Origin: Prorocentrum cordatum
Lineage: Eukaryota
Assembly: GCA_963575745.1 (NCBI GenBank)
Contig: CAUYUJ010000231.1
Coordinates: 1-64,000, forward strand
Direction: 5' to 3'
Length of the DNA stretch: 64,000 nucleotides
The notes beneath the pieces are model-generated. The model was not told where the DNA came from. It saw only the letters and a program-made list of their open reading frames with translations, and searched no databases. How positions within the stretch are numbered: the first letter of the stretch is position 1; every line of letters begins with the position of its first letter. Of the stretch, positions 6,061 through 31,758 are shown piece by piece. The position numbers were made by a program, and so were the translations under genes.

Positions 6061-8649
6061 GCTGTGCGCTCTCCTCTCCGCGGCAACAGGTGCCCAGTGT
6101 TGAAAGACCAGCACCCCAGGGGCCTGCCAGTGCGAGCGAGGGCCCCGTTGTGATGGGGACCGGCGCTGCATCATGCTCGGGTATCGTATCGAGTCGGGCG
6201 TGTCCCTCTACAGGAGGCAACGTCAACAGTAGTCCAAGAAGAGCCTAGGGAAGATGATCTAACTATGTCTAAATATGTGTTGAGTATGTTTGACTAGCTT
6301 TATTTGTCGTCCAAAATCCACCTGTTGGGGGACACGCCCGACCTGAGAATAGTAGGGAATCAGGGATGTGATGATCATTCGGTGCAGCGAGGTGCCCAGC
6401 GAGATTGCCGTGTTTTGAGGCGTGACCGCACCGCAGATGTGCGGTGCGTCTGTGACGAGTGTGGGCGACGCCACGGCGCGAGCCGCCTTTTGAAGACTAC
6501 CCCCTGGTGAGGCGGGTGCGGACGCTTGAGACGAAACTGCCAGACTCTAAGGCTTGAGCCGCGTTTTGAAGACGACAGCCGCTCCAGACGTGATGCCGCG
6601 GCAGACTTCTGTGACGGATGCGCACGTCGCTGAGCCAAGAGCCCCCCTGTGGAAGGCCACAACCCATCCATGTCTCGAGTTTGTGAAAGCTGTGAGGGCG
6701 AATGCTCGGTCAAGTTTGAGGATCTGACGTGGTGAGGACGCCTCAGGCGAAACGCCCGGTCTGCCTACCGACATGCCTTGGGGTGCGACAGGGAAGGGTT
6801 GTCCGTCAGGAGAGGTCACCACCAACCAAACCACACCAACCCAACCCAAGGCCTCAATGTGCCCTCCATTTCCAGTGTGGGTGCGGGGAACTTTGAAAAA
6901 AAAACACATGGACCCCGCACCCACCCAACCCGAATTTCGAGCGAAACTCTGGTCTTCGGGTTGTCAAAAGGATGGGGGAGGAGGAGGAGGAGGAGGAGGA
7001 GGAGGAGGAGGAGAGGATGAGGCGTATGGGGGTGGTCTGGTGGGTAGTCAAAAGGATGGGGGGGACGGGGAAGGCGGAGGACTCGTCCCGAGAGGGGGAC
7101 ACGAGGAACTGGGAGGGAGGAACGCGGCACAGGGGGGAGGAGGAAGGACGAGGAGAACGCACGGGGGCCTTGAGCCGCCCCCCTTATCCGGCTGCGTTTT
7201 TAAAGCTCCAAGCGCGAGGGCCAACATGGCTGCGGGAGGAAGAAGGAGGAGGAGGAGGAGGAGGAGAAGGAGGAGGAGGGAGAGGAGGAGGAGGAGGCAG
7301 GGGGAGGGGGAGGGGGAGGGGAGGGGGAGGGGGAGGGGGAGGAGGAGGAGGAGGAGGAGGAGGAGGAGGAGGAGGAGGAGGAGGAGGAGGCATGTGAAAG
7401 CGCTGCAGAAGTGCGCCCAGTTGCCAGGGGGGCAATCTGCGTAGTTCATCATGGGGATGATAGAGTACGGGCTTGGGACGACGCGCCGGGGTGCAAGCTC
7501 GATCCAGAATCACGTCGAAGGCGCGGGTGGTGGAGGTGGAGCAGTTCAAGCAAGTGCATGAGGAGGAATACTGCGATGTCACCTTCAATGTGCCTGTAGG
7601 CACGAGGTGGATGGACATGGGCAAGGCCGACGTGGTTGACCCAGAATACCGGTCCCGCCTAGTGGATCAGCGAGTCAAATACAGCTCCAAAGCCAGGTTT
7701 GCGGCCACCCTTCCAGTGAAAGCGAGCGAACTGCTTTTCTCCATGGCAGTTCTGGAGGGGCGAGGGATAGCCGAGGGGGGCGCGAGGAGGGGCTCGGGTT
7801 TGGGCTTCTAGATGTTAGGCGCGCGCACTTCTATGCCGAGACCAAGAAGAACATCTCCACCCGCTCGTGGAGAAAAGATCGAGCACCAGACGTGCGTGGG
7901 AGATAATAGAAGTCAATGCGTGGAACCAGGGGCGCCGCCAGAAATTGGGGAGATTGGCGTATGGAACTCGCACGCGACATTTTCTTTGACAGCGGGGGCG
8001 TCACCATGCGCGTTGGAACGTAGGACAAGGCGAATCTGGCGAATGGTTCATGGGTGCGTTTTCCGTATGGGGTAACGATGTCGTTCTTGACTAGTTCGAA
8101 GCAAACACGTACTCGAACTCGAAGTCCAGGGCAGGCTTTGACCTGGACCACAAGATTTGATGTCGACCCGCAGTCTTAATCGCGCTGCGGAATGGAAACA
8201 GAGTGGGCGATGGCGCGGGACGCCTCAGAGGCACGCTGAGATACTTGTCCACGACGCAGGCCTGGAGCAGTGCAAGGTGAGGTGCGGGGTGCCAAGTGGA
8301 GAGCTACCTTGCGACGAAGAACGCAGTTTTGCTCAGAAGCGACGCGCTGGGCGTTGTTTGCCGTTTAGAATTTGGGGTTTTTGACGAGCTGGAAGCATTG
8401 AAAACAACGCTTCGCGTGTTTTCAGCGCTACGAGTACTTGCCCCATGTCTCCGCTCGCCGTCGTCGCTCTCGCCCCCCACCTCCCGCCGCCCACCCGCCG
8501 CCCCCGCTCCGCGCGCAGAGCGCGCCGCTGAGGGCGCCAGCGAAACGCCTTGGCGCCTGTCTAGCGCCGGCGCGGAACAGGCCCCGAGGCCCCGCGACCA
8601 GCCAGCAACGGCGGCGCGCGAAGAGAAAAATAACGCCCGAGAAACTGTA

Positions 8650-9510: not shown

Positions 9511-10604
9511 AGTCTGTGAGCAGGGGCGGTACGTCCATGCGTATGCTAGGTACGAACCAACGCCTTGTTCACGGAAGGCACAGGCGGGCACCCGCTTCGG
9601 AGTGGCAGCTCAATCCAGATTTGGTTTATTATCGCGAGCCGACTTGCCGAGGACTTGAGCTCACGATCAATTGAAGACCGGTTGCTCGTCTGCGCGAATT
9701 CAAATTTGTATTACACATAACATCAAGCATATTGCATGCCTCTGTGCTCTGCGAAACTTAAATCGTGGATCGCGTGTCAGGATACCCTTGCACGTTTACG
9801 CTCCAATCGTAGTCGCCGTGTTTTTTGTACCAGTAACGCTTTCACTCATTTCATTGTACAAGTTGGCTTGCGAGGATGGGGTCCTGGCTTCGCTGCGCTG
9901 CCCAGTTGTTTCACACCCGCCCCTTACCCTGACGATTTTGCTGTGTACATTTCGCCCGTCTCCACATTCGGCTTATCAGCTGAAAAGGAGCGTGTTCTGT
10001 TTTAGCGTTCCGATTTGGTGGGCAGGCGCACTACTGTAGCGTAACACACACCAGTTTTGTATAACGTCGTGCAGCGAAACGGGTACCCCGGTAACGGGCG
10101 ACACGCCCACGTCACCCGTTATGCCTTGTTTTCTGCAAAATGTGCGGTGGCCACTTGCCGTTCCGTTCAAGTTCATATCGCCTCTTGTTTAAAACAATGC
10201 CAATTAATCGGGGCAGTGGGAGGAAGGAGAGGAGAAAGAGGAGGAGGAGGAGGAGGAGGAGGAGGAGGAGGGAGGAGAGGAGGGGAGGAGGTGTTGGAGG
10301 AACAGGAGGAGAGGGAGGAGAAGGAGGAGGAAGATGAAGAGGAGGAGGAGATTAGGAAGAGGAGGAGGAGGAGGAGGAGGAGGAGGAGGAGGAGGAAGAG
10401 GAGGAGGAGGAGGAGGATTAGAGGAGGAGGGGGAGGAAGAAGAGGAGAAGGAGGAAGAGGAGGAGGAAGAGGAGGCGGAGGAGGAGGAGGAGGAGGAGGA
10501 GGAGGAGGGGGAGGGAAGCGAGTGAGAGACGCGGGTTCGGACGGCGTGCCTCTTTTGCTGTCGTCGCGCTGGTGGGCGAGCCCCGCCCAGTGCCCCCGCC
10601 AGAG

Positions 10605-10635: not shown

Positions 10636-11086
10636 GAAGGGGCCAGGGGTTCACGGCGCAGCCTAGCTTTTATCAGAGGGAGCGAACAAATGGAATTTAG
10701 GCGCGTGGAGTAGCGGTGGGTCCCGTTTCCATCGCAGCACGAGGCGGCACCAGCTTCAAAGTTTGAAGGGTACCGTTCCCAGTCCGTTGGTTCCTCCTCT
10801 CCTTGGGCTTTCCTGGGAGCCTTTTTGGGGGTTTCTTGGTGACATATTTGGGTTGCTGGAGGGTTTGGGGGGAACCTGTTGGGGCGTCACGGGCCTTGTT
10901 CGGGCGCTCTTTGGAACCGTCCCGTCTGGCGCCTTTGGGGGGCCGTCGTGGGGGCATCTCTGGGTCGTCTTGGTGCCTTTGGGGGCCTCCAAAGGCTGTC
11001 CTGGGGGCTTCTTGGGCCATCTTGGAGAACACCCGGTCTCTCTTGGATCTGTTTCGGAAAAGCATTGGGCCACCTTTCGGGCCCTC

Positions 11087-11093: not shown

Positions 11094-11375
11094 ACTTTAA
11101 ACGGAGAAGGTTAAAGGCGATGTATATATCGAGCATGCACCGCTGCCGTGCCTGGCTCAAGCCGGGCCCGGCCAAATATGTGACTGTGCCTCACCGAGGC
11201 GCACGACTTGTATCTGAGATCGGCAATACCTTTTCCATTGAAGATGCCCCCTCTATCCTTTACTCCAGATCCCATGTTTCGTCTCGCTCTCTTGCTCATG
11301 CGATATGAGCCAAAGCCCGGGATATGGGAACGCTTGAAGCGTAACACATACCTAAGCTTACCAGTGCGTTTTCGA
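11094..11375 (+). repeat. 5' LTR (282 bp)
   Basis: ACTTTAAACGGAGAAGG...GCGTTTTCGA. Matches 27207-27489 with 5 substitutions and one 1-nt indel by manual comparison. TATA-like TGTATATAT near 11121-11129. Confidence 0.95.
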
Positions 11376-11377
11376 TT

Positions 11378-11392
11378 TGGTAGCGGAGCTGG
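11378..11392 (+). promoter_or_regulatory. Primer binding site, probably for initiator tRNA-Met
   Basis: TGGTAGCGGAGCTGG lies 2 nt after the LTR end. TGGTAGC is complementary to the ...GCUACCA 3' end typical of eukaryotic tRNA-iMet. Confidence 0.8.
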
Positions 11393-11825
11393 CTACACTC
11401 TCGTGTGGCTGGCTCTCGCTCTGATTCCTGTAATCCACGGCACAACTTGGTGGACTACTACTACGGTGGAATACCATGTTGCGCCGGCTCTGCGAGGAGC
11501 GGAGCCAGTCCGCGATCGAGCCAGCGGGGCGACCCGCGAGCTCGAGACGCTCTCTCCTACTTCACTGCGCTACTTCACTCTCGACTTCCACCAAATGCCA
11601 ATCGGCAACTCGATCGAGAACGTGGTCACCCTGCGGGGCTACCCGCAGCGGGGCCACCTGCATCCCGTGCCAGTCAGACGCCTCACGGCTACTACGCCAG
11701 AGCCTGACAAACCACAGCCTAAACCAATCACCGAAGCCGAAATGCACATGCACTGGATTAAGATAACTATCTTCGGCATTCTATGGGTAATAATGGGATG
11801 TGCTGTGGGATACATGCGGCAGGGG

Positions 11826-12430
11826 ATGGACGACACGCGTACTACCGGCCCTTCGTGGGACCCTGCCGGTACTACGCCTTTTCGCGAATACGTTCGCGAA
11901 GTACATGCATGGATAAACGTAACGAGCGGCAATATGACGCCACCTCAACAAGCTGCAGCACTACAACGAGGCCTTCAAGGTCTTGCTCGTCGTATCGCCA
12001 TGCAGGTCCCCTCCCAGATCATCAACTATGGTGTAACTGTCAACGGACAGCCAACGGATGCAGTTACTTATATACTGTACCTATTGAGCACCAAATTTGA
12101 AAATCTGGAAGATGAGCGCCAGCTCAACTCTGGCACTGCCCTTATCGAATTTCGCGTCGAAAGGGGCGAGCGAATCGACTCAGTGTTAGCTTGATTCGAG
12201 ATGGCCCGTGACGAGGCTAACTCTGTTGGCTTTGTCATCCCCAACTTTCAGATCCTAACGCTGATCCTTTTCAGAGCGTTAGGCGTTGGCGCGTCTCGAG
12301 CCCAACACCTGCTGGAGCCCTTTAATCATCAGATGCCCAGAACACAAGCAGACTATGACAGGCTGCTGACCAGGATGAGGAACTACGGACATGTTGCCGA
12401 GCGCTCTCCTGGCAACATTGCGGGTATCTT
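11826..12430 (+). other. Gag capsid-like region
   Basis: GPSWDPAGTTPFREYVREVHAW...QQAAALQRGLQGLAR...IEFRVERGERIDSVLA(R)FE is a retrotransposon Gag-like helical pattern, upstream of a basic RGKG-rich tract and the Zn knuckle. Confidence 0.7.
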
Positions 12431-13121
12431 CACAGGGCACCACTCACATGCAGGTGTCTACGCCACGACTGCGGGGTCACCCGCTGGTCCTGGCGAGCCA
12501 AGTCCCTGGGCTGACCAAGCCGATATGCCCAACGAGGCCACTGCCTTCTTAGGGCAGACCGGCCAGGCATCGGCAGAGGCAGCTGAGGCGAACGCCTGGT
12601 CGAACTACTCGCCAGGCGCCGCCTACACTGCAAGCCCGCCCTCGGGCACAACCCTCTGGGGCCAAGCGGAGTCATCCGCTCAAGGGTCTCAGCCGCCCTC
12701 ACCGTTTGAATCTGGCACTGACACAGATACCTCATCTGACGATGAGCACAATGGCATAGTCTCTGCTGGTAATGACTATCCAGCGGATGACACTCACCTT
12801 TCTGAACAACAAAGAGCGGAAGCCGCTTTTATGGCTTATCGCAAATCAAAACGCCGTTGGAGGCGCTTTATGAAGAAACCAGTCAGAAAAGTGAGACGTG
12901 CAGTACGCCGACATTTCAAACGATATGGAAAGGGTCGTGGCAAAGGGGGTCGCAGACGCCGTATGCATGGTAGGGGTATTACTGCTTTCCTCACGTCCTT
13001 AACTGATATAGTTTTTGAAGAAGTTCTTATCGGAGGCAAAGGTCGGGGTCACAGGCGGACCTCTGGTAAGGGAAAAGGGCGTAGGGGCAACCCTAGGGAC
13101 GCTTCTGGCAATACTATGAAG

Positions 13122-13163
13122 TGTCATACATGCGGTAGCACAGAGCATTTGCGCGATCAATGC
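13122..13163 (+). other. CCHC zinc knuckle (nucleocapsid)
   Basis: CHTCGSTEHLRDQC = C-x2-C-x4-H-x4-C. Confidence 0.95.
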
Positions 13164-14849
13164 CCGAAAGGGAAAGGAAAGGGATCCGTACATTTGGCTC
13201 AAAACTGTTTTATGGATGACATAGACTACATTGACTACGAGTTTTACGTCAATCCAGAAGCGGCTCCCGCCGCGGGCTCCTCCACGTACCACGTGATGGC
13301 CCGCTACGCTGAAGTGACCGTAGCCCTGGAAGAGTACGCGGTGACCCTCTTCGACGAGTTCCACGGCTGGGACGAAGTCGACGAGGTCGCGTTCAATGCC
13401 TGGTTCGGTCTTCCAGCGGGGCCACCCGCCGACGACGAGATCTCCGATGCTGAGACCGTCCCGGCGACCGAGGAGGAGCTCGCCGCCGCGCTGGCACCGC
13501 AGGTGATTGGCATGCCGTTGCTGCCAGATCTTCCGCGAGCTGGCTCGGAAGCGGGAGACGCTGATGACGAAATGCGGGGCCATCCCGCTGATTCTGACTC
13601 TGAAGAGGCCGAAGAGGACTATAAGGCCATGCTCCAAGAGCAGGTCGCAGAAGCAATCCAGCTCCTGAGTGCGCCAGCACATCAGCAGATAACCATGAAC
13701 GGCCTGCTGTCGCGCCCAGGGGCCGCAAGGCTGCGTCCATACCTGGATTCGGACATGTCGGCACCTCAGATGCTGACAGCACTCCAGGCTCTAGCGGGGT
13801 CACCCGCCGAAGTGACGCCAGCCGCAGCAGCGGGGCCACCCGCTTGGTCTATGGATGTAGTCATGCAGGGCTGCGACCAGATGGACCTCAACGACCTCAC
13901 GATGGAGCAGCTCAACGACATCGGGTACTTCCGAAGCCCGTATCAGCACGTATTCATGGTCCAGGACAGCTCAGAGGACTCGGAGGACATGCGCCATGCC
14001 AAGAGGGACAGACGACCATCGCCTCCCCGAGACTCAGAGCATGACGATCAAAGGCCCATGGGACGTGGCAGTGCGTTAGCGGGGCCAGCCCGCAGGAGGA
14101 GCCGCTCAGCTCCACGACGCCCTACACATGATGCATCGGGCTACCCGTACAGTACGGAGCACTCCGTAGGTGTATCCGCTCAGTACGTGCCGGAGTGGTA
14201 CATCAATTGGTACCCCGGCTACTCGATGGACGTGATCCGCCACTGGTATTCTAAGGAGTACTGCGCCAACAGGGACGAATCTGGCATGATAATACGTACC
14301 AAGGGTGGCAAGACTAAAACGCCAGAGGCTTGGGACAAAAGGGCTAAGAAACAGGAGATCATCAACGATCGCAAGACATACAGGAAACAAGTATGTCAAT
14401 GCGAGCCCTTCAAAAGTCACATGCGCAGCTGTCCAATGGACCGCCCCTCCAGGAGCCCTCATCACGGTGAGACCCCGTGGAATTGGTCTCATGGAGATGA
14501 CGCCGGCAACGTCCATGATCCTAACAAGGAGGTCCCTGGAGGAGGAAAGCGCATCACTGAAGCCGATCGCGTCCCTATGACCGAGGAGGTTGCCAACGCT
14601 GTCAGGGAAAATTGGGAACAGCTTCCTAATGACCATCGCCTCAAGGAATGGAACCGCCGATTCCATAAAGAGGCGGGGCCACCCGCAGAATCCAGCGGAG
14701 AAGCGGGGCCACCCGCAGACGCGGCGCCAGTCGCTGGGTCCGCGGACGAAGATTGGATAGCTGTTGCATCTGCTGCCGGATCCGCCGCCGGTACTGACCA
14801 AACCGAACTGAATGAAGAATGGGCGGCGGAAGACGGCTCAGAGAATCCA

Positions 14850-14990
14850 TTCCCTGATGGGTGCGCCTGCTGGTACTACAGCTCCTCGGCACAGAAGTGG
14901 TTCTGCACAAGGGTTATTCACCGCCACGAAAATGGCAAGTACAAGCTGGCCATAAAAGGCACTGCCAACATCGACCAGATGAGGCAGATC
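14850..14990 (+). other. SH3/Tudor-like small beta-barrel domain in ORF1
   Basis: FPDGCACWYYSSSAQKWFCTRVIHRHENGKYKLAIKGTANIDQMRQI is an isolated globular beta-rich island with the G-x-V...W-x3-V...G-x-Y pattern of SH3-fold barrels. Confidence 0.5.
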
Positions 14991-16031
14991 ATCCATGATC
15001 ATGGCCAGCCAGAAGGCCCTCCTAAGGACCCTCCTGGTCCACAACCAGGTAAGGGCAGCAGACCACCTCCAAGACCTGAAGCCGACTCCTCGTCTTCACC
15101 GACTCCTGCGAAGAGGCACCCGTCCAAGAGCCCCGAAGGCACACAGGGGCGTGCGAAGGCCAGAGGGATCGCCAAGCAGAACGACCCTGAGCAGGGAGAG
15201 CCTACCGGCCCGTCTGTGACGGAGAGGAGGAAGGCTTTTGCTGGACCATCGACCCCGATGCCACCGGCTGCCCAAGGCGATGTCAAGGACGAAGTTCGCG
15301 ACCAACCTAAGGCAGCCTTCCGAGGTGACTGGACTCCAACTCTGCATCAGCCGCGCCTTGCACCACGACCAGGTTCGGCACGAATGAAAGCGCAGCCGAA
15401 GCCCGAAGCTGGGATGAGGTCGGCGCGGGCAGAAGCAGCCGCCAAAGCTAAGGAGGACAAGGGCTCTGCGGGGCCACCCGCTAAAGCGGCGCCAGCTGCA
15501 GCAGCGGGGACACCCGCAGAAGGCACTCTCTCAAGAGAAGAACGCTTCAGAGCCCTCAAAGAATTTGGCGACCGACAGAAACTAGCCGACGATGCAATGG
15601 CTGACCAATGTCACCCGCACCCTGGCGCGGAGTCATCCGCTGGAGCTGCCTCGTTAGCCGCAGGCTCTGCGGGGCCACCCGTTAAAGCGCCGCCAGCTGC
15701 ATTAGCGGGGCCACCCGCACGCTGGCAGCCAGTGATGTCTGTTCTCAGGAACATCCCTCTGGGAGCCATTGAATATTGGCAAGGCATTGAAGGCAAAGGC
15801 CCGAAGCGCACCATAAACCCACGAGTCACTCGAGACGATACAGATCGATACGAGGTCATTAATTGCCCTGATCGTCGTAACTTCGAGTGCCGCAACGATT
15901 GGGAACGTGAACAACAAGCCGTGGGAAATATGTTGCGAGACAGGCCGCCATTGCGCGTCGCGCAGCACAGGGCAGAGCTCATGAAGGTCATGGAGAAGTT
16001 TAATACAGATCCTACTCTGCCGCGCGACTGG

Positions 16032-16800
16032 CAAATGACCAAGGTGTCAATATGGTTCTCTACAGCCCTACGCCATAGTCCGTATTGGAAGGATGGATTC
16101 AGCCGACACTTCGAAAAGATCAACACTTTCGATCCATACGATGGCTGGGTTGTTATTGACGATTTGTTGACAAACTGGACTGAAAACGATCAGTGGAAAG
16201 GCTACCGTGACATGCATGATGTGCTGATCAAGGGCAACCCTCACTGTTCATACGTGTACTGGGTGTTGCTAAACTGCTGCGAGATGATCGACGGTCATGG
16301 TATGCAGAAGGGCAGGCTCCAGATGAAGTGCGTCGAGGACAGCATGAAGCTACCTCCCAGATTCCGACCAACGGTACGCAGGCCACAATACTTCATCAGA
16401 GCCACGAACGGCCATAGCAGCCCAGGCATCCACTGCCCCGAGTCGCTCTATAAGCCGATCACAACATGGATGAAGGAACCAGACGACCCAGTATACTTCA
16501 TCCACGGGACACAGTGGGAACATGTCAAGGGCATCCTTGATAATGGCCTTTCGTGCCTCGCACAGGACAACCCTAAGGGGAAGGGGGGGCGCCAGTTCGT
16601 ACACGGCTGCCCCTACCTCCCGGGTGACCCGAGGATTCAATCGGGCATCCGTCCTGACTCAGAGGTGCTTATCTTCTGCAGCATCAGCAAGATGTTGTCC
16701 AGCGGCTTTTCCTTATGGAGGTCAGCGAATGACATCGTCATGACACGGGGCCACGACGGCCGCATACCGCCCGATCATATCCTCCAGATTGTGAGCATTG
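16032..16800 (+). other. Tpt1/KptA family NAD+-dependent RNA 2'-phosphotransferase domain in ORF1
   Basis: Family motifs occur in order: S..LRH (ALRHS), DGWV, KGRLQ, IRATNGHS, FIHGT, I...GL, GRQFVH, SGIRPDSEVLI, WRSANDIVMTRGHDGRIPPDHI. Confidence 0.9.
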
Positions 16801-18434
16801 CAAAATATCGGGTCGGTGAAGCCTGGAGCAATCCGCTGGCGTATGACAAATCGCGGAAGCGGGGCCAACCCGCAGACAGGATTCGCACCGATGATTACCT
16901 GCCACTTAAACTATGTGACAGAACTCTGGGTGTAATGGAAGATCACGCCATGTACCTAAAGGGCTGGTCTAAGACGGACGGTCGCCCATTCAACTTGATC
17001 ATGACCGAGCAAGATGTTGCTCCACGACCGTACGACACACAGACAGTCCTCATGATAAATGCCCAGGAAGACGAGGTCATGCCTGAGGCGGGGCCACCCG
17101 CAGGTGCGGGGACACCCGCGGTAGACACCTCGGACGGTTCATGGCAACAAGTGGTCACACCAGTAGCAACGGTAGCATCTCCTTGGAGGCCGGATCAGCA
17201 GGCATGGGTCCAGGCCCTCAACAGCTACCTGACACCAGCCGACGTTTCTGGACTGACCGATCAGCTATATCGTGCTGACCCGTGGGCAGTGCATACAGGT
17301 ATCCAAGACGCACAGCAGAGGAACCTGCGCACTCCTGCGGGGCCACCAGGCGTCCTAGGACCACAGCCACAACGCCCTCCGCAGCAGGCTGGAGGTGCGA
17401 GGTTTGTCCCTATGGGCGGCTCAGATGGTGGCTCGCCGTTCCGGACTCCGCCGTCTGAAACGAGCGAGAACAGCTTGTGGCAAAGACTCCAGGCGATTCG
17501 CGGGAATCCGGCACTCGCAGCAGCACTCCAAGCAACCACTCCCTTTGGCACTCCGAGGGGCAGTGAAGGAGGAGTGGCTGCGGGGTCACCCGCCGAGCGA
17601 ACGCCTGCGGAGCCACCCGCTCAAGCGGGGCCACCCGCTGACGGACAGCAAGGTTCAGACTACGAACGTCGGGCAGCCAACTTAAGAGCACAGGCTACTT
17701 TTCTGCAGCAACAAGCTGATAGAGTGCCCAGCCTGTTGCGGAACCGCAACATAGATGTTACGAATCATGGCGACTTTCGACCTCTTTGGAGTTGGACTTC
17801 TGAAGATGCTCCAAATGCTGATCCCACGAATCCATATCGACAGGTGTTTATTCCAGGAATAGCATCACACCCGATATATGGATGGGACAATCACGGTCCA
17901 GCAGAGGCGCAGGCCATGGACGCGCCGATGTACCCGGAGTACTACGCGCAGATGAATAACACTCCTATGATTGCGGGGCCACCTGCGAACGAATACACTC
18001 GGAACCTAGCTAATGAGATGTTTCGTTTGCAGTTTACACGAGCGGTCGATGCGCAGTCTATGCCGCACTACGCCTACATGCCCACGCCGACGGACCCCGA
18101 GACCATAGTTCAGCCAGCTGGTCTCGCGGTGCCAGCCGCTATGGGCAGCATGCCAGACTACATTCGCGACGTGCACAACACGCAGCAAGCGATACTGGCA
18201 TCCAGGCAGCAGGCTCGGGACAACACCAGGCTGCGCCAACAACGCGCGATCCAGAGAAGGATTGAGCGCGAGGCCCAAGCGGGGACACCCGCAGAAGCGG
18301 GGCCACCCGCTGAACGGTCAGACAGACGGCCACCACCGACGCCATATCGGGAGGGCGAAACCACTTTCGAGCGCCAAGCTCGGACTCGCCCTGACGTGCC
18401 TGCTCCAGTCATTTCAGACTACAACTTCACTCAG

Positions 18435-18593
18435 TGCCCAATCTGCATGGACAACTACGAGATGGGCACTACAGTGTGGAGACTGGCGTGCGGGCACTTC
18501 TTTCACGACATATGCTGGGACCGTGTTGCACAACAGCACGTCCGCAATCAGCGGCCAGGTGCGTCGAATGAGGCCCCCTGTGCCGTATGTCGG
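18435..18593 (+). other. RING-H2 zinc finger in ORF1
   Basis: CPIC-x14-CGHFFHDIC-x21-CAVCR fits the C3H2C3 pattern. Confidence 0.92.
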
Positions 18594-19409
18594 GGACCGG
18601 GCATAGTGATAGCACACTTCCCATATGCTGGACAGCGCGACGCTGAGTCGGACCAAGCGCGCCAGCAGGAAAGGTATGTTGCAGATGCCCGAGAAATGCG
18701 TCGGTTACGAGAAGCAGTGGAGGCACTGGAGGCTCGAGTCGCTCTATCAGCGGAGCCATCCGCACGTGCCCCAGCTGCACAGGCATACCCCTGGCCAGCG
18801 CCAGAACAAGGCATTCAGATGCCGATCCTGTCCACGCTCCGAGCGCAGGAGCCCCCAGCTGCGGGGCCACCCGCTGAAGCGGCTTCCGCCGCCCAAGCGG
18901 GGCCACCCGCAAACGGACCTCCAAACCCAGGTTTCCTGAGGACCATGGAGGCCAACATCAGGCGGAGTGGCAGGAGCGGAGGCGGGATCCGAAGGCCAAC
19001 TGGATCAACCAGGACCTCTCGAGCGGCAAGCCCGGTCAGCGCCAGAAGCCGGGCAAGCGCTGAGAGCGCAGAGGCAGCCCAGTTTCATACCACGTTCATG
19101 ATTGACACAGAGGGGCTGACCTACGCGCGTAACGATACAGACACGCTGCCACCAGGAGGCGAATGGATGTCCACGCTCTCTGCAAACTATTGGGTCCTCC
19201 AGCAGGAACCAATTACTGTGGGGGGGCACCGCCAGTGCGATCAGATGTGGTGCACCGAGCTGACCATGAGCCAATGGGTTCTTGAACAGCGCCTGTTGAG
19301 GGGTACACTCGGATCACAGATCACGTACCACACCAACGACCACACTGGCGTACAGGTCGCTCTTGCAGCGCGCAATGGGACATTCTTTCCTGATGAAGAT
19401 GGTGTGCCC

Positions 19410-19850
19410 TGTATCTCGTTCATGCTGGACATTGGTTCTAATGTGAACATCATTGGATCCAACACGGCGCGGACCTTCCAGGAGATAATGGCCAGGTACA
19501 ACTACCGACCTGCCATCTGCACCCTGAGCAAGACCCTCTACATTAATGGTGTTGGGGAGGGCGCTGCGATATGTCGGAAGATGGGCAACTTCAAGATCGG
19601 GGTACAGTATGCCAACGAGGCGAGCCCCCGTATCGAGGAGTATGCCTCCAACATCGCAGAAGGTTCGGGTGCCAATCTCCCGGCCATCTGGGGCCTAGGA
19701 GCCATGGAGGCACGTGACACGATCATCGTGCTGAAGCCTGGCTACCAGAAGGTCATCTTCCCCAGCGGTGACTACACCCTGAAGCTGGGAAGAGGCGCCA
19801 AGGTCCTGAAGGCGAAAAAGACTCCCTCGGGCCATCTCGCGATTCCCTGC
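19410..19850 (+). other. Retroviral-type aspartic protease
   Basis: ISFMLDIGSNVNIIG (D-x-G-S active site, atypical DIG), flap-like INGVG, LPAIWGL and terminal PSGHLAIP. Confidence 0.8.
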
Positions 19851-20599
19851 GGGCTGTATGAAGGGGCCAAGAGCCACGCGGTCACGAACACCTTCACGAT
19901 CCGCAGCAGTCGAGATGGCTACACCGAGACGGAGAATGAAGAAGACCCCGTCAGTGCGGGGCCACCCGCTGAAACAACAGCGGGGCCACCCGCGACGGGG
20001 CAGTCTGCGACCTTCACGACCGATACGTACATCGTCGAGCCGTACATCGACAAGCAGCTCCTGGAGGACACGACCCGTTTGATCGTGAACAGGACGCTGA
20101 AGAACTGGTGGGAGCGCCGACAGGGTCCCGAAGGGACTGGGCCACACATGAAGGCCGCCCTGAAGTCCAAGATTTTCTGGGCAGTCCAGGAGGCGGTGAG
20201 CGCATGGACGCCTGAGGATCCAGCGGGGCCACCCGCGTCGCCGCCACCACCACCAAGCCACATGGGCGGAGGTTCGTCGGACTCTGCGGGGCCAACCCGC
20301 GTGGAGATCGTGGGTCACGCTACGGATCGGACGGAATACTTTGACATTTCTGAAAACAATCCGCCGATTCTGTCTGCGAGCGTGGCCACACCAGCTGCGG
20401 GGTCACCCGCCGAGCGAACGCCTGCGGAGTCATCCGCTAACAGCATGCCTCCGAGCCAAGCGGCAACTTGGTCTAACGACCGCCGCTGACGGGGGCAGGC
20501 GGGCGCGCCGGCGGCGCTCGCTTGCGATGAGAAGCCGAATGCCGGCCTCCTCGCTACATACGTTGGCCGCGCTGAGGCCCGAGAGGAAAAATATCATTC

Positions 20600-21180
20600 A
20601 AAATGTCTTGTCATCGAGGATATTCGCACAGCTTGCGCTGAACTCCGAACCCGTGGCTATATATGTGATCGGATTACCCATAATGAGGTAATGACTTCAA
20701 CTGGAACACAGTATTTGGGAAATTTGTTGGCAGGAGACTACAATATGTTGTGGGTGGCCACACCCTCTGATTGGTACGTTCGTACTCCAGGAAAGAGGGC
20801 GGGACCACACTATCAACGTATACAAAATCTCCTGATCAAAGCGCGTGCTCTGAGAATGCAGATTGTTATCCTGGGGCCACCCGGGTATTTCTGGAAACAG
20901 GGTCCGATCAAAGATGTTATCGAAGATTTGAAGCTAAGCATTATACGAATGAGACTCTGTCATTTCGGTGTCAAGTTTCACCGCTCCAGTAAATATCCCA
21001 GTGGTTCTTATATACAAGTTGCTACATCTTGTCCTCATATACCGATAAACTTATGGAGATGTACTTGTGGCTCACACAAAGAGCATGATTTGGATTGGTA
21101 TGGCCAAGATCAGCAACGTGCCGAGTTCCGGCATAAAACCTTGGCTATCATCACTGCACGCTTCCTTGATCAACTCAATA
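20600..21180 (+). other. Degenerate (probably inactive) C5-methyltransferase-like domain 1
   Basis: Motif order parallels domain 2: LWVATPSDW (in place of PxC), VILGPPGYFW (in place of E-x-P...W), RLCHFG (cf. DQCTTG), CTCGSHKEH (cf. CPGNHVH). Confidence 0.45.
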
Positions 21181-21941
21181 AAGCCAACGTGATTAGGAAT
21201 GAGCGGAGTGCGGTACACCTCAGTGTGCGTACGCGCGTTGACAAAAAGGTAAGACACTACGTTCAATGTCCACAAAAGGGCCCTCAATGGGACCATGTTG
21301 TTCGTAGAGTCACGACCGACCTGGACACGAATAAGATCGTTCAAGATATCAAAATCCAGGATCAGCCGACTGGGTACAATTATGTAGCTCCATTACCTGA
21401 TGGGGTTACAAACATCAGTACTCGGTTATACTGGGAGCCTCCGGCTCCAGTTCTTCACGGCGATGGTGAGTCGCGAAGGCCACGCCCAAAGCGTGTGACG
21501 ATCGTCGATGACGATCGGTCTCCTCCCCCTTCGATTGAGCGTTGCCAAACGCGACCCACCAACTTTCCTGAAATTCCGCCATTTCCTGACTTAACAGCGG
21601 ATCCTTCCGCAGCGGATCCCTCCGCAGCGGATCTCTCCGCGGAAACTGCGCTGCCCACTGATGCCAGGATAAAACAGAAAGAAAAGCAGAAAGCTGACAA
21701 AGAAGCCGGCATCAAACCGAAGAAAATCCCGAAGAAAGTGGAAGACGGTAACGACGACTGTGGAGAGGACCTCAAAGGGCTTGACTGCTCCACATATTTC
21801 AACGACGTTCCTCTTGATGACTCGGACTCGGACAGCGAATCAGAGGACATCTTCATGATGTTACCGGCGGGGCAACCCGCTGACTCACATGCTGATGTCT
21901 TCTCGATGGTCCAGTCATTATGCTACGGCAGAAACAATCAA

Positions 21942-22570
21942 GTGGACATGCTTGAATTATGTGGGGGCAAGGGTGGTATATCCATATTAGCCTTCAAGAG
22001 AGGACTCTCGTCGGGCGGGAACCTTGATAAGATATCTATGGTTGACCTTGGAAACGCGGAAGTACAAAGGGCAGTCCTTCACTACCTCAAGACTTGCTTT
22101 GTCAAGATCACGATTCTGCAGCCAAGCTGCAGAACTACTGGACTTCCTTCCTACTTCAATGCACAGGTCAATCATGACACGTGGCTTAAACACCACAAAG
22201 AGGACCTGCCCCATATCACGTTCTGTGGAACAGTCGCTCTATTGCAAGACGACCTAAGACGTTTCTTTCTCAGGGAACAACCAATGGGCACGTGGGTGGA
22301 TGAGATCCAGCCATGGAAGGAACTGGCACGACGCAAGGTCACTTGCCAAACGATTATTGATCAGTGCACGACTGGTCTCAAAGATTCGTTTGGACAATAT
22401 ATCCGCAAGCCAACGCAGATGATGGCAAACAAAGAAGAGTTGTTGGCACCCTTCAGAGGCAAGCGTTGTCCAGGTAATCATGTGCACGCCAATGCTTGCA
22501 ACAAAGAACTAGCAAGGGCGGCACAGTATACCTACAGAATGCAGTCACTGATCGTTGATGCGGTGCAAAT
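21942..22570 (+). other. Cytosine-C5 DNA methyltransferase-like domain 2
   Basis: Motif I-like DMLELCGGKGGIS, motif IV-like LQPSC (Cys at 22128), motif VI-like FLREQP, DQCTTG...RKPT, CPGNHVH, and motif X-like AAQYTYRM. Confidence 0.72.
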
Positions 22571-23339
22571 CGCCAAAGATCTGTTTGCTTACGGTCGCGA
22601 TCCATTCGCGAATCGCGAACGCAGTTATGCGTTCGTAACAAACAGTGCTGGCTACGACTTGGACGACCCAACAATCCGGAGACACCCAAACGGAGAAATC
22701 TGGCGACCACCACCTGGCGGTCTTGGGTGTCCTGGCTGTGTAGACAACAACTACAAACAATCACCAAGACACAGCAGGGATCCGAAGATGTGTCGATGGT
22801 ATGATGTTGAACCATACCATTGGAACTGTCCAAGCTGTAAGAAGGAATACCAGAAGAGCAATCCTCACCATACCAAGATATCTGGCCAATGTAGATTCGC
22901 TGAAAAATGGAAACTGCCAGATAACTTTGGTCAGCCGCGCCCAGCGGGGCAAGCCGCTCCTGCGGCGCCAGCCGCGGAAGCGGCTCCAGCCGCAGAAGCG
23001 GCGCCAGCCGCAAAAGCGGCGCCGGCCGCGAAAGCGCGCATACGCGCGCCTAGGCCGCCACGGCCCGGTGAGGGCGATCCAACCGCAGGCGCCAGCAGCC
23101 ATGACATCACCAGGGCCGAGGGGGCTCATGGTAACAGTCTGGCGCTGGTAGCTCTGACGATCACCGCAGACTGCCACAAGTTGCAGCAAGGCGCGGACGC
23201 ATGGAGGGAGGAGATCCTCCACCACCGCCGCAGCCTCAAGCAGAGCCGAGGCCAAGGCCAAGGCTCCCTGATTGGACTCGCTTCGACGTTCAGCTCAGCC
23301 TTCAAAACCTGCGCAGCTTTGACCCGCTGTAGTGCAGCG

Positions 23340-24330
23340 AGAACTCCGCAAACTCCACTTGAGATGGTTTCATGCCAAGGAGCCAAAAATGCGGATGATT
23401 CTAACTAAGGTTGGTCTGGGTGAAACCCGTTTGAGTCTGATCAAAGGCATTTGCGACTCGTGTAGAGAATGTCGAGCCTGGGACAAACCAGGCAACACGG
23501 TGATGCCTTCTGTGTCACTGCCAGGACGTTTCAACGAGGAAGTCGAATGTGATCTTTTCTTTTACAAACAGGAACATATTGTTTTTCACATCATCGACCG
23601 TTGTATTCGCTGGGCAGCTGGCACAGAGATTCCTGATAAAGCTATGCATACTGTTCTCGATGCCTATCATACGAACTTGGATGCAACATGGCCCTGCTAA
23701 AATCTTATACTCCGATGGGGAAGGAGCACTGAATAACGATACAGCAAAGGCCATCCTTAAGGCTAAGGGAACAGAGCTTCGTATCCGAGCGCGTGGCCAA
23801 CACGCCACGACTATCGAAGCTAGGAACGGCATCCTGCGACACCTCATACACGTGATGGGAGAAGAATTGAATAGATTAAATATTCCTCTGAATTTCACTC
23901 GTCTTTTACATGAAGCCTTGTTTGCCAGCAACGCATTTACCTTCTACAATGAAGTGTCTCCGTACAATGCGCTGTATGGCAGACAACCAGCTATGCTTCC
24001 CGATTTCCCTGTCTTGGATCATGATCAGTCCGCTGAATCATCAGATCACTCAAGGGAGGAGACAATCAGGAGGGTTAGTCTGGAGGCAATCACGCAGGCC
24101 ACTGCGGTTGCCAAGACGAACAGGGCTCTCCGTACGAAGACTACTGCTACGGGTGAATTTCACTACAAAGAGGGAGATCTCGTGGACTATCATCGCCCGA
24201 CCACCACGAAAGACGACTGGGGTGGATGGAGTGGTCCATACCCGGTCATCCGCAACGAACCTGACCGAGGCCAGGTCATCGTGAAGGTCGGCAGTCGCGA
24301 AGTGCGAGTACAGTATCCTGACACACGACA
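23340..24330 (+). other. Integrase (HHCC + DDE core + C-terminal SH3-like), frameshifted at ~23672
   Basis: LHLRWFH...CDSCREC; VECDLFF; LYSDGE followed by 33 residues and IEARNG; GDLVDYHR...WSGPYPV. Confidence 0.92.
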
Positions 24331-25395
24331 TACGCTGTACATCGAAGCACTGATGGTCCGCGAGATAGGATCGGACAATACGGCCCTTCGGACAGTATTG
24401 GCCTTTATTGCCGGTCTGCCAGCGGGGAAACCCGCCATGACTTTCGGATATCTACCAGCGAAACAGGGCCGGCTGCAGATGACTGCTGCGAGCCGACTTT
24501 CGCCTAAGGTGCACTTGGCTCTTCAGTACCTCATACGCAACTATTTTCGTATTGAAAACGTTGTTGCTGTACGACTTGCCAAGAGCCTGACGAAGTTGCC
24601 TGCTGCCCCCTATGCAGACAGCTGTACACTAGTGCACTATGATAACGATGTGACCCCTGGCTTTCCATATTTTGAAGCTGATGACACTGCCTTGAACATC
24701 TACGACATCACAGGATCCACACACTCACGCATCATCCAGTGTCTTGAATCCAAGAAGCCGCCTGCTGGATTCGACCGAGACCTCACTAAGTTTGAGGAAC
24801 TCGCTGATGGTCCACCACCAAGCGAGTCACCGCCAGCAGCTGCTCCTGAGCAGCCTCCTGCGGAGAATGATGGTCGGCTCCCGACCATCATAGAGGAAAC
24901 AGAAGAAGATCTGGATGCCTTTGTCTTAAAGTCGTGGTATGCTGAACTGATGGATGACAGAACACTCCTTGAAGCTGACACAGAAGAAGTCATGCATACA
25001 GTTCCGACATACATGACAGACACACAGTGTGTGTTAGTCTCTACGACCTGTGAAGATGTGCAAGGCCACTTGCCGGAGCGGGGTCACCCGCCAGGATACG
25101 ACATGGACACTGCTTACTACGTTCCTTTGTGCTCCACGGATCCGGACAGCAAATATGATCTGGATTCCGATGAGCACGGGAAGTACATCGAGCTTTGCTT
25201 CACAGCAGACATGTCCAAAGTCGTCCTGTCCGAGCAGCAACACCGATTGTTGGATGACAGCAGCGTCACAACTATGCGAGTATACGTTAGTGATGCCTCC
25301 AAACGTGCCGTGGTCGTCAAGGAAGACGATCTACTCACGAAGGCCGACATTCAAGCGAATCCGGTCAAAGTTTCCAAGGCCCTTTCTACACAGAA

Positions 25396-27102
25396 TTGAA
25401 GACTTGGCTTGACAACAAATGCTTCCAGATGACTGGCTTGAGCAAAGCGTCGAACATCATGACTTCGCGCTACGTATACAAATGGAAGTTTGTCAAGAAC
25501 GAAAAGGGCGAAATGGAAAGGACGATTAGGTTACGCTTGGTACTCCGTGGCTTCATGGACCTTGAAGCCTTTGATGTCGAAACCTTCTCTGGCACGGCAA
25601 GGAGGTCAAGCCAGAGACTGCTCGCAAGTTCTGCTGCATGCAACAAAGCTTGGATCATCGCTTCCCTGGACATCAACATGGCTTTCTTGAAGGGACTGAC
25701 CTATAGCGAGCTCGCCGCGGCAACGGGCGAGAAAGAGCGTGTGGTGTGCTTCACACTACCTCCTGGGTCAGCAGCTGTCCTTCGCACACTGCCAGGCTTT
25801 GAGTCATATGACGAATCAAAGCACTGTCTTCGGTGTCTGAAGCCGGGGGCGGGCACGAAGGATGCTCCCAGGGCATTCTCGTTGAAGCTCAGGTCCATCA
25901 CTAGGAGCTTTGGACTACAGCCTACTTCGTACGAGGAAGAGTTCGAGATGAGCCCAAACCTCTTGACAGCCAAACACGTTGATGACATCAATATGACTGG
26001 GAAGGAAGATGCTATTGACAAGTATGTCAAGTGTGTTGAAGATACGTTTGGAAAGTGCAAACTGAACAAGCACACATACACAAACTGTGCCGTTCGGTAC
26101 AACAAGACCGATGATGGGAGCGTCACTCTTGATCAGGACGAATACATCAAACAGCTTCGTCCTATCACACATCCAGAACTCACAGGAGCTGATCCTGAGA
26201 GCAAAGCGACAAAGACGATTTCTGATATGTTCGTCAGTCTTCGTGGCGCTCTAGCCTATGCGTTGATCACGCAGGTATGGCTGATGGTCTATGTTGTCTC
26301 ACTACAACGTATCCAGGAACCGACAAACATCCAGGTACGACGACTAAACGCGGTTACCAGGAAACTGCAGGCAGGTCCGAAGAAGATCGTGTATCAAGCT
26401 ATGACCCCAACAGGAGAAGTCGACCTGCATAGCGATTCTGGCTATCGTCGTCTCAACGGAGATGAAGACGACGAAGTCAAAGGCTATGGTATCCGCGGGG
26501 CTAACCTGCTGAGGCGTGGCCACACGCAAGCGGGGAAACCCGTCGTGCACCTGGTGGACGCATACTGCAAGTCTCATCGACTGCAGGTGCGTTCGAGCTA
26601 CTCTGCGGAAACACTGGCAGCAGCCCACAACTTGGAAGACTGCTACCCGACCATTGTAACGCTCCACGAGCTACACTCGGGACCATTGACCCCCACACAG
26701 TTAAAGAACATATTGGAAATGGGTGGTCTATGTATCAAAGTCACTCTGACTATTGATGCCGAGTCTGTCTTCAAGTCTTTGTCTAGCAAAGATCTGAAGA
26801 AGCCCACAGAATGTACTCTGCTTGGGCACATTAGCTGGATCCGCCAGATGATGGAGCGCGGAATCGTTGAAAGCGTTCAATGGTGTGACACGCGGGATAT
26901 GACTGCCGATGGTCATACCAAAGGTAGTATTGACCGCGCGTTGCTCCTACAAGTAATGGCCGGCCAGCAATCCTTCAAGCACGAGCTGAAGAAACATACT
27001 CCGTATAGGGCGGGCAGGTCGTCTCAGGACGGCCCTGCCTCCCGAGCTAGCGGGGAAACCCGCGTGCAGGTGCGCTTTAGTAGCGAGGAAACTCGCCGGT
27101 AG
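25396..27102 (+). CDS. Copia-type reverse transcriptase + RNase H
   Basis: RT motifs SRYVYKWK, RLRLVLRGF, LDINMAFLKG, GTKDAPRAF, KHVDD. RNase H motifs HSDS, SSYSAETLA, TIDAES, MTADGHTKG. Confidence 0.95.
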   Translation: MKTWLDNKCFQMTGLSKASNIMTSRYVYKWKFVKNEKGEMERTIRLRLVLRGFMDLEAFDVETFSGTARRSSQRLLASSAACNKAWIIASLDINMAFLKGLTYSELAAATGEKERVVCFTLPPGSAAVLRTLPGFESYDESKHCLRCLKPGAGTKDAPRAFSLKLRSITRSFGLQPTSYEEEFEMSPNLLTAKHVDDINMTGKEDAIDKYVKCVEDTFGKCKLNKHTYTNCAVRYNKTDDGSVTLDQDEYIKQLRPITHPELTGADPESKATKTISDMFVSLRGALAYALITQVWLMVYVVSLQRIQEPTNIQVRRLNAVTRKLQAGPKKIVYQAMTPTGEVDLHSDSGYRRLNGDEDDEVKGYGIRGANLLRRGHTQAGKPVVHLVDAYCKSHRLQVRSSYSAETLAAAHNLEDCYPTIVTLHELHSGPLTPTQLKNILEMGGLCIKVTLTIDAESVFKSLSSKDLKKPTECTLLGHISWIRQMMERGIVESVQWCDTRDMTADGHTKGSIDRALLLQVMAGQQSFKHELKKHTPYRAGRSSQDGPASRASGETRVQVRFSSEETRR

Positions 27103-27206
27103 CGAGGTTACTCGCGCGCCCTTACCTTGTAGGCAGCCGCTGTTGCCTAGCACTGTTTTTCCGTGTAATGTAGAAGCGCGGTGCCTGCTCGTCTCCTCCC
27201 CCTCCG

Positions 27207-27489
27207 ACTTTAAACGGAGAAGGTTAAAGGCGAGGTATATATCGAGCATGCACCGCTGCCGTGCCTGGCTCAAGCCGGGCCCGGCCAAATATGTGACTGT
27301 GCCTCACCGAGGCGCACGACTTGTATCTGAGATCGGAAAATACCTTTTCCATTGAAGATGCCCCTTCTATCCTTTACTCCAGATCCCATGCTTCGTCTCG
27401 CTCTCTTGCTCATGCGATATGAGCCAAAGCCTGGGATATGGGAACGCTTGAAGCGTAACACATACCTAAGCTTACCAGTGCGTTTTCGA
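27207..27489 (+). repeat. 3' LTR (283 bp)
   Basis: Near-identical direct copy of 11094-11375, followed immediately by CTGGGCC. Confidence 0.95.
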
Positions 27490-30159: not shown

Positions 30160-31758
30160 CTCAAGGGCCTTTGGGAGGCAGTTTTGAAGCCTTTTGCGGG
30201 CCGTGTTGGGGCCTCTTGGGGCCTCTTGGGGGCCTCCAAGGGGCCTCTTGGGGGCCTCTTGGGGCTTCTTGGGGCGCCTGATGGGGGCCCCTTGGGGCCT
30301 CTTGGGGGCCTCTTGGGGCCGTTTTGGGGATCTCTTGGGCCGTCTTGGGCGGCTCTTGGGCTGTGTTGGGCACATCTTGGGCCGTCTTGGGGCCCACTTG
30401 GAGTCTTCGTGGGCCGTCTTGGGGCGGTCTTGGAAGCCTCATGGGCCGTCTTGGAGCGCCGGTAAGCCGAAAAGACGATAACCCCAAAAACAGTCAGAAA
30501 CTATTGTAAAATCACTCATGTCTGTCTCTGTGGGCCCTCTTGGGAGGTCTCTTGGAGGCCTCTTGGGGCGTCTTGAAGGCGCTTTGGGCTTTCTGGAGAC
30601 AATATTTTGCGTCTTCGATCGCTCTGGGACCGTCTCGGACCATGTTGAGCTCTCTTGGAGGCTACTTGAAGCGCTCCTGGAGCGCTTTTGGGAGCCTGCT
30701 GGGACCTGGCCGGGACCTGCCAGGGCCCGGCCGGGATCCGGTCGGGGTTTGGCCGGGGGTTGACCGGGGGTTCGCCGGGATTTGCGGGGGACCTACAGGG
30801 GCGGCCCCGCGCGCGCGAAGTAGAAATGTTGTTAACCAGTCATTGGAGATCTTAGCACGCCCTTGGGCCAGCGAATTTTTGGGAAGTGGTCTTTAAGTAC
30901 GATGGGAGCAACATATTATTCGGGGCCCTCCAGGGGTCTCGGGACTGTCAGGAACCGGCTCGGGATGAAGAGCCTCAGGCCCCGGGGTCCAGCACCCCTT
31001 GCCCTCAGGACCCGTTTCCCCCACGCTAAGAGGAGAGGTCAAGGCCAGACAGGGTGTTGATGGGGGGCGGGCAAAAAGGGGGTGATGACTGGGTGGGGTG
31101 GATATCATGGTGAGGCTAATTATGATATCCCCTCAGATTTCATGGCGCCTTGTCTTATTTCAATACGTCCCTGCCCGCCCCCTGGACCGCGCACATCCAT
31201 GATTTGCGCGCCCCCTCTTGGACGCCCCCCTCGTGGCCGCCCCCGAGCCATGGGACAGCCGGGTCCTGAGGGAACCAGGCCCTGGGGCTTTTCACCGCTC
31301 TCGGCCGCTTCGGGGCCCTCCTGGGGTCTCCCAGGACTGTCAGATACCGGCTCGGGAGGAAGAGCTTGCCCTGGGGGCAGGCCCCGGGGTCCAGCACCCG
31401 CTTCCCCCACGCTAAGAGGAGAAGCCAAGGCCAGACAGGGAGTCTATCACTAGGGAACAGTGAGCACCCCCTCCCCGATGGGGAAGAAGGAAGGGTTGGA
31501 AGAGGGAGCGCCCAAAACCACTCACGACCAGAGGACAGGTGGGAGTTGTATACAGCCGCTGGAGCATCGATGTGTGCTGCCTCTGGAGGCCCATGCTGGG
31601 GGTCCTCTGGGAGCCCTTTTGGGCCGTCTCCAGGGCTAGGTCGGGCATGTCCCCCTACAGGCTGATTCTGGAGGAAAAAACAAATAGTCAAATAATATTC
31701 AAAAATGATATATAAGCGGCGTCCGGGGCCCCGCGGCCCAGGGTCGCACGCTTTCCCC

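Follow-up and report, generated by a model that had tools for sequence, protein, structure and literature searches.

A Tpt1/KptA-type RNA 2'-phosphotransferase domain, apparently kept by selection, in the Gag-side polyprotein of a 16.4-kb copia retrotransposon from Prorocentrum cordatum

What use would a retrotransposon have for an RNA 2'-phosphotransferase of its own? Tpt1/KptA enzymes are deeply conserved, and it is still debated what they do apart from tRNA splicing in fungi and plants. The question is raised by a 64,000-nucleotide stretch of DNA from the dinoflagellate Prorocentrum cordatum (assembly GCA_963575745.1, contig CAUYUJ010000231.1, positions 1 to 64,000 of the forward strand; hereafter the window), in which a long terminal repeat (LTR) retrotransposon carries a Tpt1/KptA-like domain at 16032-16800 (+ strand). 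The locus as a whole is best explained, in our view, by a Tpt1/KptA domain that is an integral and selected part of the element's polyprotein and that would serve in the clean-up of RNA, a combined explanation that we hold to be somewhat better than an even bet.

The identity of the domain can be judged from its motifs, profile match and predicted fold. A stop-free reading frame runs through 16032-16800 and translates into 256 amino acids. The first-pass annotation of this DNA had named eight Tpt1 motifs within a globular island of the first open reading frame (ORF1) and had proposed candidates for all four residues of the Arg-His-Arg-Arg active site, and both claims are upheld. All eight motifs are found in the expected order, which is far beyond chance: ALRH (domain residues 12-15), KGRL (93-96), IRATNGHS (122-129), HGT (158-160), GRQFVH (186-191), SGIR (204-207), SANDIVMT (231-238) and GRIPP (243-247). 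A failure to match the Tpt1 profile or fold had been named in advance as grounds for giving up the idea; instead, the segment scores 64.9 bits (E-value 1.3e-17) with Pfam PF01885 (RNA 2'-phosphotransferase, Tpt1/KptA), for which the curated cut-off is 26, and the best solved relatives found by phmmer in the PDB are human TRPT1 (E 6e-14) and mouse TRPT1 (E 1e-12). An AlphaFold model, built on an alignment of 30 rows, has a mean predicted local distance difference test score (pLDDT) of 79, with values of 84-97 in the lobe predicted to bind nicotinamide adenine dinucleotide (NAD+). When this model was compared with the PDB by Foldseek, all 22 matches at E <= 0.001 were Tpt1/KptA structures, and the TM-score, normalised to mouse TRPT1 (7yw2), was 0.78 over an alignment of about 257 columns that takes in both lobes. 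The model thus has the two-lobe architecture of the family, with a winged-helix RNA lobe (approximately 16032-16330) and an ADP-ribosyltransferase-type NAD+ lobe (approximately 16380-16800).

The Arg-His-Arg-Arg tetrad is reported to be essential for Tpt1 (PMC6333775), and the candidates for its residues are R14, H15, R95 and R187 of the domain. R14 and H15, in ALRH, correspond to R18 and H19 of CthTpt1 by the offsets of the PDB-match alignments; R95, in KGRL, is invariant in all 30 rows of the alignment; and R187, which belongs to GRQFVH, has a conservation of 90% or more among these 30 sequences and is aligned with R138 of the yeast enzyme. All four residues are kept in two contigs of a sister family (L001 and L002, below) and in the database protein P0008. 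More generally, the tetrad and the motifs of the NAD+ lobe (HGT, SGxR and SxN) are kept in every full-length relative, across about 50% divergence. Judged by its sequence and model, the segment codes for a true Tpt1/KptA domain of two lobes whose tetrad is intact; by profile, fold and tetrad this predicted protein is a member of the Tpt1/KptA family, and it is catalytically plausible.

The domain lies inside a large polyprotein. The frame that holds it, ORF1, extends over 2762 codons (12201-20489) and encodes, in order, a Gag-like block, a CCHC zinc knuckle, the Tpt1 domain, a RING finger and a protease-like block. A search with a four-row alignment identified a sister family, represented by a JGI metagenome contig of 8780 bp (L001) with one open frame of 2653 codons and the same order of parts; an ENA protein (P0005) has nearly the same sequence. 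The Tpt1 domain of this contig matches PF01885 with 61.8 bits over profile positions 5-177. Comparison of the two ORF1 products gave identities of 67-73% in the Gag-like core, 65% around the knuckle, 48-65% in Tpt1, where the NAD+ lobe is the best-kept part (53-65%), and 32-43% in the RING and protease-like blocks. The linkers flanking Tpt1 are only 10-28% identical, with many gaps, and Tpt1 is therefore an island of conservation between poorly conserved linkers. Between L001 and L002, which belong to the same sister family, nonsynonymous divergence (dN) is 0.109 and synonymous divergence (dS) 0.92, as measured on 242 codons of Tpt1; the resulting ratio of 0.12 applies within the sister family only, as dS is saturated when the window copy is compared with either contig. 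Absence of the domain from sister copies, or its neutral evolution, had also been named in the first-pass annotation as grounds for giving up the idea; the domain is present in a divergent family, where its dN/dS indicates purifying selection. The shared order, the conservation island and the ratio of 0.12 together argue that Tpt1 is selected cargo and not a decaying capture. The domain was, on these sequences, acquired before the two families diverged (approximately 50% amino acid identity in Tpt1), and purifying selection has preserved it since then.

A tree of 69 rows places seven element-type Tpt1s on one branch (SH-aLRT, the Shimodaira-Hasegawa-like approximate likelihood ratio test, 97), apart from 62 cellular-type rows and on a long stem of 1.58; the tree shows this separateness only. 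Seven element-type Tpt1 fragments (P0008, P0011-P0013, P0016, P0017 and P0019) come from a EukProt set labelled as Pyramimonas sp., a green alga, and either reflect dinoflagellate contamination of that data set or indicate that the family extends beyond dinoflagellates. Among the cellular-type proteins, P0024 has four tandem Tpt1 domains in 776 amino acids and P0031 has two, and in P0118 Tpt1 is fused to tRNA-ligase CPD and kinase-like domains.

The state of the copy in the window was assessed by comparing the element region 11400-27200, in 30 bins, with the contigs of four public runs (X1, X2, X4 and X5). All 30 bins were covered in all four runs, and run X1 alone contributed 33,830 contigs, so that the family must be very abundant; all four runs consist of contigs, whose depth cannot rank the parts of the element. 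At position 12192 the window has T and all of the depth in each of the four runs has C, which turns the TGA at 12192-12194 into CGA. As all other depth reads CGA, the TGA is a nonsense mutation private to this copy, and the ORF1 of the family, as read from these contigs, begins further upstream, within 11184-12194. In comparison with many sister copies the window also differs by indels of one base at 23135, 23325 and 23673/4 and of two bases at 25385. The alternative indel states account for most or all of the depth in X2; in X4 and X5 their share varies, and in X1 they are in the minority. They would unite ORF2, the integrase and the reverse transcriptase (RT) in a single frame, the two-base difference at 25385 being the one that connects the RT with the integrase frame. 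In this copy the four indels split these regions over three frames. By a cruder check on selection, 27 of 39 listed in-frame differences between this copy and the run contigs were synonymous, a count drawn from 40 of 1111 difference places, one of the 40 lying upstream of the frame.

What, then, might the domain do? The most likely reading, to which we give a probability of roughly 40%, is that it would be an RNA clean-up enzyme encoded by the element. It would act within the Gag-side polyprotein, or after cleavage from it, and remove 2'-phosphates in a reaction dependent on NAD+. Internal 2'-phosphates would arise when nuclease-cut RNA is rejoined by a ligase of the plant/fungal type and terminal ones when 2',3'-cyclic ends are opened; Tpt1 would hand the 2'-phosphate over to NAD+. 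The substrate may be the unusually long genomic RNA of the element, its tRNA primer or both, and a 16-kb template with a single, strictly conserved primer is a plausible client for such an enzyme. 2'-Phosphates impede reverse transcriptase. The outcome would be RNA that can be copied by the RT and is neither stalled nor marked for decay. Observations in yeast are consistent with the latter point, as 2'-phosphorylated RNA is reported to block Xrn1 and to be a substrate for decay (PMC6456296), and Iyer et al. (2022, PMC9503650) have proposed RNA-end repair for the KptA domains that a nidovirus and a picorna-like virus carry inside their polyproteins.

Several points weigh against this reading. 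The PF01885 match of the window copy is restricted to profile positions 67-177, and the RNA lobe is a less confident part of the model (pLDDT 55-78) and carries an insert. This copy of the element is defective, because of its private TGA at 12192 and the indels in the integrase/RT region, though its Tpt1 segment is intact. In P0007 and P0014, two gene models, the RNA lobe runs straight into the protease-like block and there is no NAD+ lobe; these are either internally deleted copies or the product of introns drawn into the gene models. Pfam scans of the element found no 2H phosphoesterase, RNA ligase or macro domain as a partner, and the proposed role would presuppose a host ligase that leaves 2'-phosphates behind. 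Finally, sequence cannot tell removal of a 2'-phosphate from ADP-ribosylation of a 5'-phosphate, two reactions for which TkoTpt1 is reported to use a similar mechanism (PMC12678800).

This last point leads to the main competing explanation, which we consider unlikely but by a smaller distance than the others: the domain may ADP-ribosylate RNA or cDNA of the element at its 5'-monophosphate ends, carrying out the first step of the reaction without release, and so shield these ends from 5'-3' exonucleases, end-sensing and ligation. TRPT1, Tpt1 and KptA are reported to ADP-ribosylate 5'-phosphorylated RNA and single-stranded DNA in vitro (PMC8883491; PMC12678800), the closest solved relatives of the domain are mammalian TRPT1s, for which a capping activity is discussed, and the same tetrad serves both reactions, so that all of the evidence on the domain fits capping equally well. 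However, a 5'-capped cDNA would be expected to hinder the gap repair that completes integration, and no reversing enzyme of the macro or ARH type was detected by the Pfam scans of the element. A role in conflict with the host is a good deal less probable. Here the domain would mend or modify host RNAs, such as cleaved tRNAs or fragments that compete for the primer-binding site (PBS), perhaps together with the RING finger. 3' tRNA fragments restrict LTR elements, the PBS is identical in the two families, so that the element would depend on one tRNA, and Tpt1 and RING co-occur in both. Viral NAD+/ADP-ribose domains are also largely related to conflict in the survey of Iyer et al. (PMC9503650). 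The case is nonetheless purely circumstantial, and the dN/dS of 0.12 gives no sign of the rapid diversification by which conflict proteins typically evolve.

We also considered whether the domain might be a captured host Tpt1 that is no longer catalytic, either decaying or retained as an RNA-binding or structural spacer. Its divergence would suit such a fate: element-type domains score 62-65 Pfam bits compared with 150-190 per domain in cellular proteins, they sit on the stem branch of 1.58, the RNA lobe has acquired an insert, and the NAD+ lobe is missing from the P0007 and P0014 models. Yet the four tetrad residues are kept together with HGT, SGxR and SxN across about 50% divergence, the NAD+ lobe is the best conserved part (53-65%), and the dN/dS of the domain is 0.12; we regard this explanation as very improbable. 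It is barely credible that assembly or gene modelling has fused a host Tpt1 gene with a transposon. The public Prorocentrum gene models P0004 and P0006, which include parts of the element, are indeed clearly chimeric, but in the window an uninterrupted frame of 2762 codons lies between matching LTRs, the order of parts recurs in a single frame of 2653 codons on a metagenome contig of independent origin, and every bin of the element is covered by contigs from four runs.

A second unusual feature of the element may bear on the handling of its RNA. Dispersed between 11487 and 27115 on the + strand are 47 hairpins of 14 nt with the form GC-NNN-GNNA-NNN-GC, the commonest of which is GCGGGGCCACCCGC, read as A-G-P-P-A. 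With at most one mismatch this sequence occurs 29 times, always on the + strand and always inside the element, against an expectation of 0.07. When pairing is not required, 58 such 14-mers are present on the + strand of the element, and the 47 are those with all three inner pairs. On the - strand of the element 5 of 10 are paired; in the 47.6 kb outside the element the corresponding figures are 3 of 19 (+ strand) and 1 of 13 (- strand), and shuffled sequence gave a mean of 0.29 hairpins. In 17 stem variants pairing is preserved by changes on both sides (GGG/CCC, GGA/TCC, GAG/CTC, AAG/CTT and others). The sister contig L001 has 24 such 14-mers, of which 20, lying between 52 and 8528 (+ strand), are paired, and 12 of these 20 need G-U pairs, which are workable only in + strand RNA. 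Most of the hairpins are in frame as A-G-x-P-A and lie in the poorly conserved linkers between domains; none is inside the Tpt1 domain, the nearest being at 15627, 15705, 17088 and 17106. Selection on the RNA can be argued because variants that preserve the stem change the peptide (AESSA, AAPA). No Rfam family matches the hairpins. A reasonable guess is that they could be sites along a very long RNA for binding or packaging by the zinc-knuckle Gag or nucleocapsid protein; alternatively, the encoded peptides may be cleavage sites of the polyprotein.

Taken with the Tpt1 domain, the hairpins raise the idea of a virus-like kit for RNA maintenance, in which a particle-associated Gag-side Tpt1/KptA would act on the 16-kb RNA or tRNA primer, by 2'-phosphate removal or ADP-ribose capping, and the approximately 47 hairpins would be signals for the zinc-knuckle Gag. 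We find this idea rather doubtful. If it is true, the domain would be the first NAD+-dependent nucleic-acid phosphotransferase encoded by a retroelement. [quoted passage not shown] The 5' LTR (11094-11375, + strand, 282 bp) and the 3' LTR (27207-27489, + strand, 283 bp) differ by five mismatches and one gap in 283 positions. Two nucleotides past the 5' LTR is the putative PBS, a 17-mer (TGGTAGCGGAGCTGGCT, 11378-11394, + strand) that recurs unchanged at 1014 of the sister contig L001 and which may fit the 3' end of initiator tRNA-Met; a tRNA scan and an Rfam scan of the 64-kb window gave no match and no tRNA gene. Upstream of the 3' LTR we looked for a polypurine tract and found that the 20 nt at this place (CTCGTCTCCTCCCCCTCCG; tract at 27188-27206) are pyrimidine-rich on the + strand. 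The LTRs do not have TG...CA ends. As an apparent target-site duplication there is a 7-bp CTGGGCC, which may be due to chance because it lies inside an 11-nt tandem array. The short duplications of Ty1/copia elements are usually 5 bp. Tandem arrays whose repeat units, for example TTGGGGCCTCT, have periods of 9 and 11 nt were seen at 7249-7410, 10201-10563, 10938-11036, 27500-28144 and 30173-30401, and because such arrays flank the element on both sides it appears to have inserted into a satellite-like array. No further copies of the element are present elsewhere in the window.

Within ORF1 the Gag-like block (11724-12440, + strand) is the best-conserved part, at 67-73% identity to L001, and is interrupted in this copy by the TGA. 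At its N-terminus is a conserved hydrophobic segment (HWIKITIFGILWV...GY, 11742-11830), lying within a stretch of 70% identity to L001; from its sequence the segment looks like a membrane anchor, which would be unusual in a Gag. The placement of Tpt1 between a zinc knuckle and a protease, as first annotated, stands in part. The knuckle, a CX2CX4HX4C motif (CHTCGSTEHLRDQC, 13122-13163, + strand), can be read directly and is conserved in L001, with a Pfam zf-CCHC match that remains below threshold (E 0.0035-0.007; 16.8-17.8 bits against a cut-off of 20.8). The protease is represented by a motif only: the block at 19377-19865 (+ strand; FMLDIGSNVNIIG ... AIWGLGAM) is conserved in L001, P0005, P0007 and P0014 and carries a conserved LDIGSNVNI, whose putative active-site motif is DIG(S) in place of the D[ST]G of retropepsins, and it had no Pfam or PDB match and an AlphaFold model (five-row alignment) with a pLDDT of 32.9. 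Between Tpt1 and this block, the earlier list of ORF1 domains had missed a RING finger (18432-18593, + strand; 30.4 bits with Pfam zf-RING_2, whose cut-off is 27.3), which is conserved in L001 and P0005.

ORF1 ends at an in-frame TGA (20487-20489, + strand) that is followed by C and by 972 further open codons in frame. Were this stop leaky, as the first-pass annotation proposed, the Tpt1 domain upstream of it would be produced in Gag-like amounts and might be packaged into particles. The open frame between the protease-like block and the integrase-like region (20490-23408, + strand) amounts to about 900 codons and has no Pfam match; no relatives of 497-1584 amino acids were found, and its atlas leads are at chance level. 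A C5-methyltransferase suspected by eye in this frame ("ELCGGKGG") was dropped, there being no Pfam match and an atlas lead of 0.75, which is the level of chance. In this copy the integrase-like region (23332-25399, + strand) falls into two frames, with 23332-23700 in frame 1 and the sequence from 23504 onward in frame 2. It had no Pfam or PDB match; by eye it shows the motifs C-x2-C, ECDLFFY, HIIDRC and SDGEGALNND, and its atlas leads to rve clusters reach 0.86-0.88, under the line of 0.9. The RT and the C-terminal part occupy 25294-27102 (+ strand), and the match to Pfam PF07727 (RVT_2; cut-off 31.6 bits), which scores 44.5 bits with an E-value of 1.9e-11, lies at approximately 25417-26196.

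How does this element compare with known systems? Like other Ty1/copia elements (Pseudoviridae) it has LTRs, a putative tRNA-type PBS, an RVT_2 RT and an integrase-like sequence upstream of the RT. It differs from them in being about three times the usual length, in an ORF1 of approximately 2,800-3,100 codons with Tpt1 and RING, in an extra block of about 900 codons before the integrase, and in having DIGS and not D[ST]G, no polypurine tract and an apparent duplication of 7 bp. Unusually large, enzyme-rich copia elements thus account for some of the repeats in the genome of this bloom-forming dinoflagellate. Capture of a host-type enzyme that modifies nucleic acids has a precedent in dinoflagellate retroelements, as de Mendoza et al. 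(2018, PMC5890265) described retrotransposons of Symbiodinium and Klebsormidium that carry a DNA methyltransferase (DNMT). Both the enzyme and the class of element differ from ours, the Copia elements of Symbiodinium being reported there without DNMT, and the words phosphotransferase, KptA and RING do not appear in the available text of that paper.

The first-pass annotation knew of no characterised LTR element with a Tpt1 cargo, and our full-text search, which covered the main text of openly accessible papers, likewise found no report of Tpt1/KptA in any retroelement; the precedents lie outside retroelements, in two RNA-virus polyproteins. An abundant retrotransposon with a selected Tpt1 would be a new natural setting in which to search for substrates of this family, among them template RNA, primer tRNA and cDNA ends. 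With the cellular enzymes (mouse and human TRPT1, 7yw2 and 7yw3; yeast Tpt1, 7yw4; Clostridium thermocellum Tpt1, 6e3a) the element domain shares the two-lobe fold, the tetrad and the HGT and SGxR motifs. In contrast to these enzymes, which are encoded by free-standing genes, it is an internal domain of a retrotransposon polyprotein; it is 27-33% identical to the cellular-type alignment rows and forms a separate long branch, and its RNA lobe contains an insert. Large DNA viruses also carry the Tpt1 fold, as reported for sawfly nucleopolyhedroviruses, Bodo saltans virus, Hyperionvirus and Sylvanvirus (PMC3230848; PMC9503650), but as separate genes, none of them within a Gag-Pol polyprotein. A search of viral contigs for the domain pattern gave 53 matches, of which none was confirmed. 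The closest parallels are replicase 1ab of the Botrylloides leachii nidovirus and Beihai picorna-like virus 117, in which KptA is likewise reported inside the polyprotein of a replicator with an RNA genome (PMC9503650); the KptA segment of the nidovirus is the third-best viral fold match to our domain model (E 4e-11). The terms retrotransposon and retroelement are absent from the available text of that survey. These two are positive-strand RNA viruses of animals with KptA on the replicase side, whereas here the carrier is an LTR element of a protist, with the domain in the Gag-side part of the polyprotein and ahead of the protease-like block. Viruses are known to carry KptA, though rarely; what appears from these sequences to be new is a polyprotein-embedded KptA on the Gag side of a reverse-transcribing element, which would take the short list of NAD+/ADP-ribose domains embedded in polyproteins beyond RNA viruses, to elements that replicate by reverse transcription.

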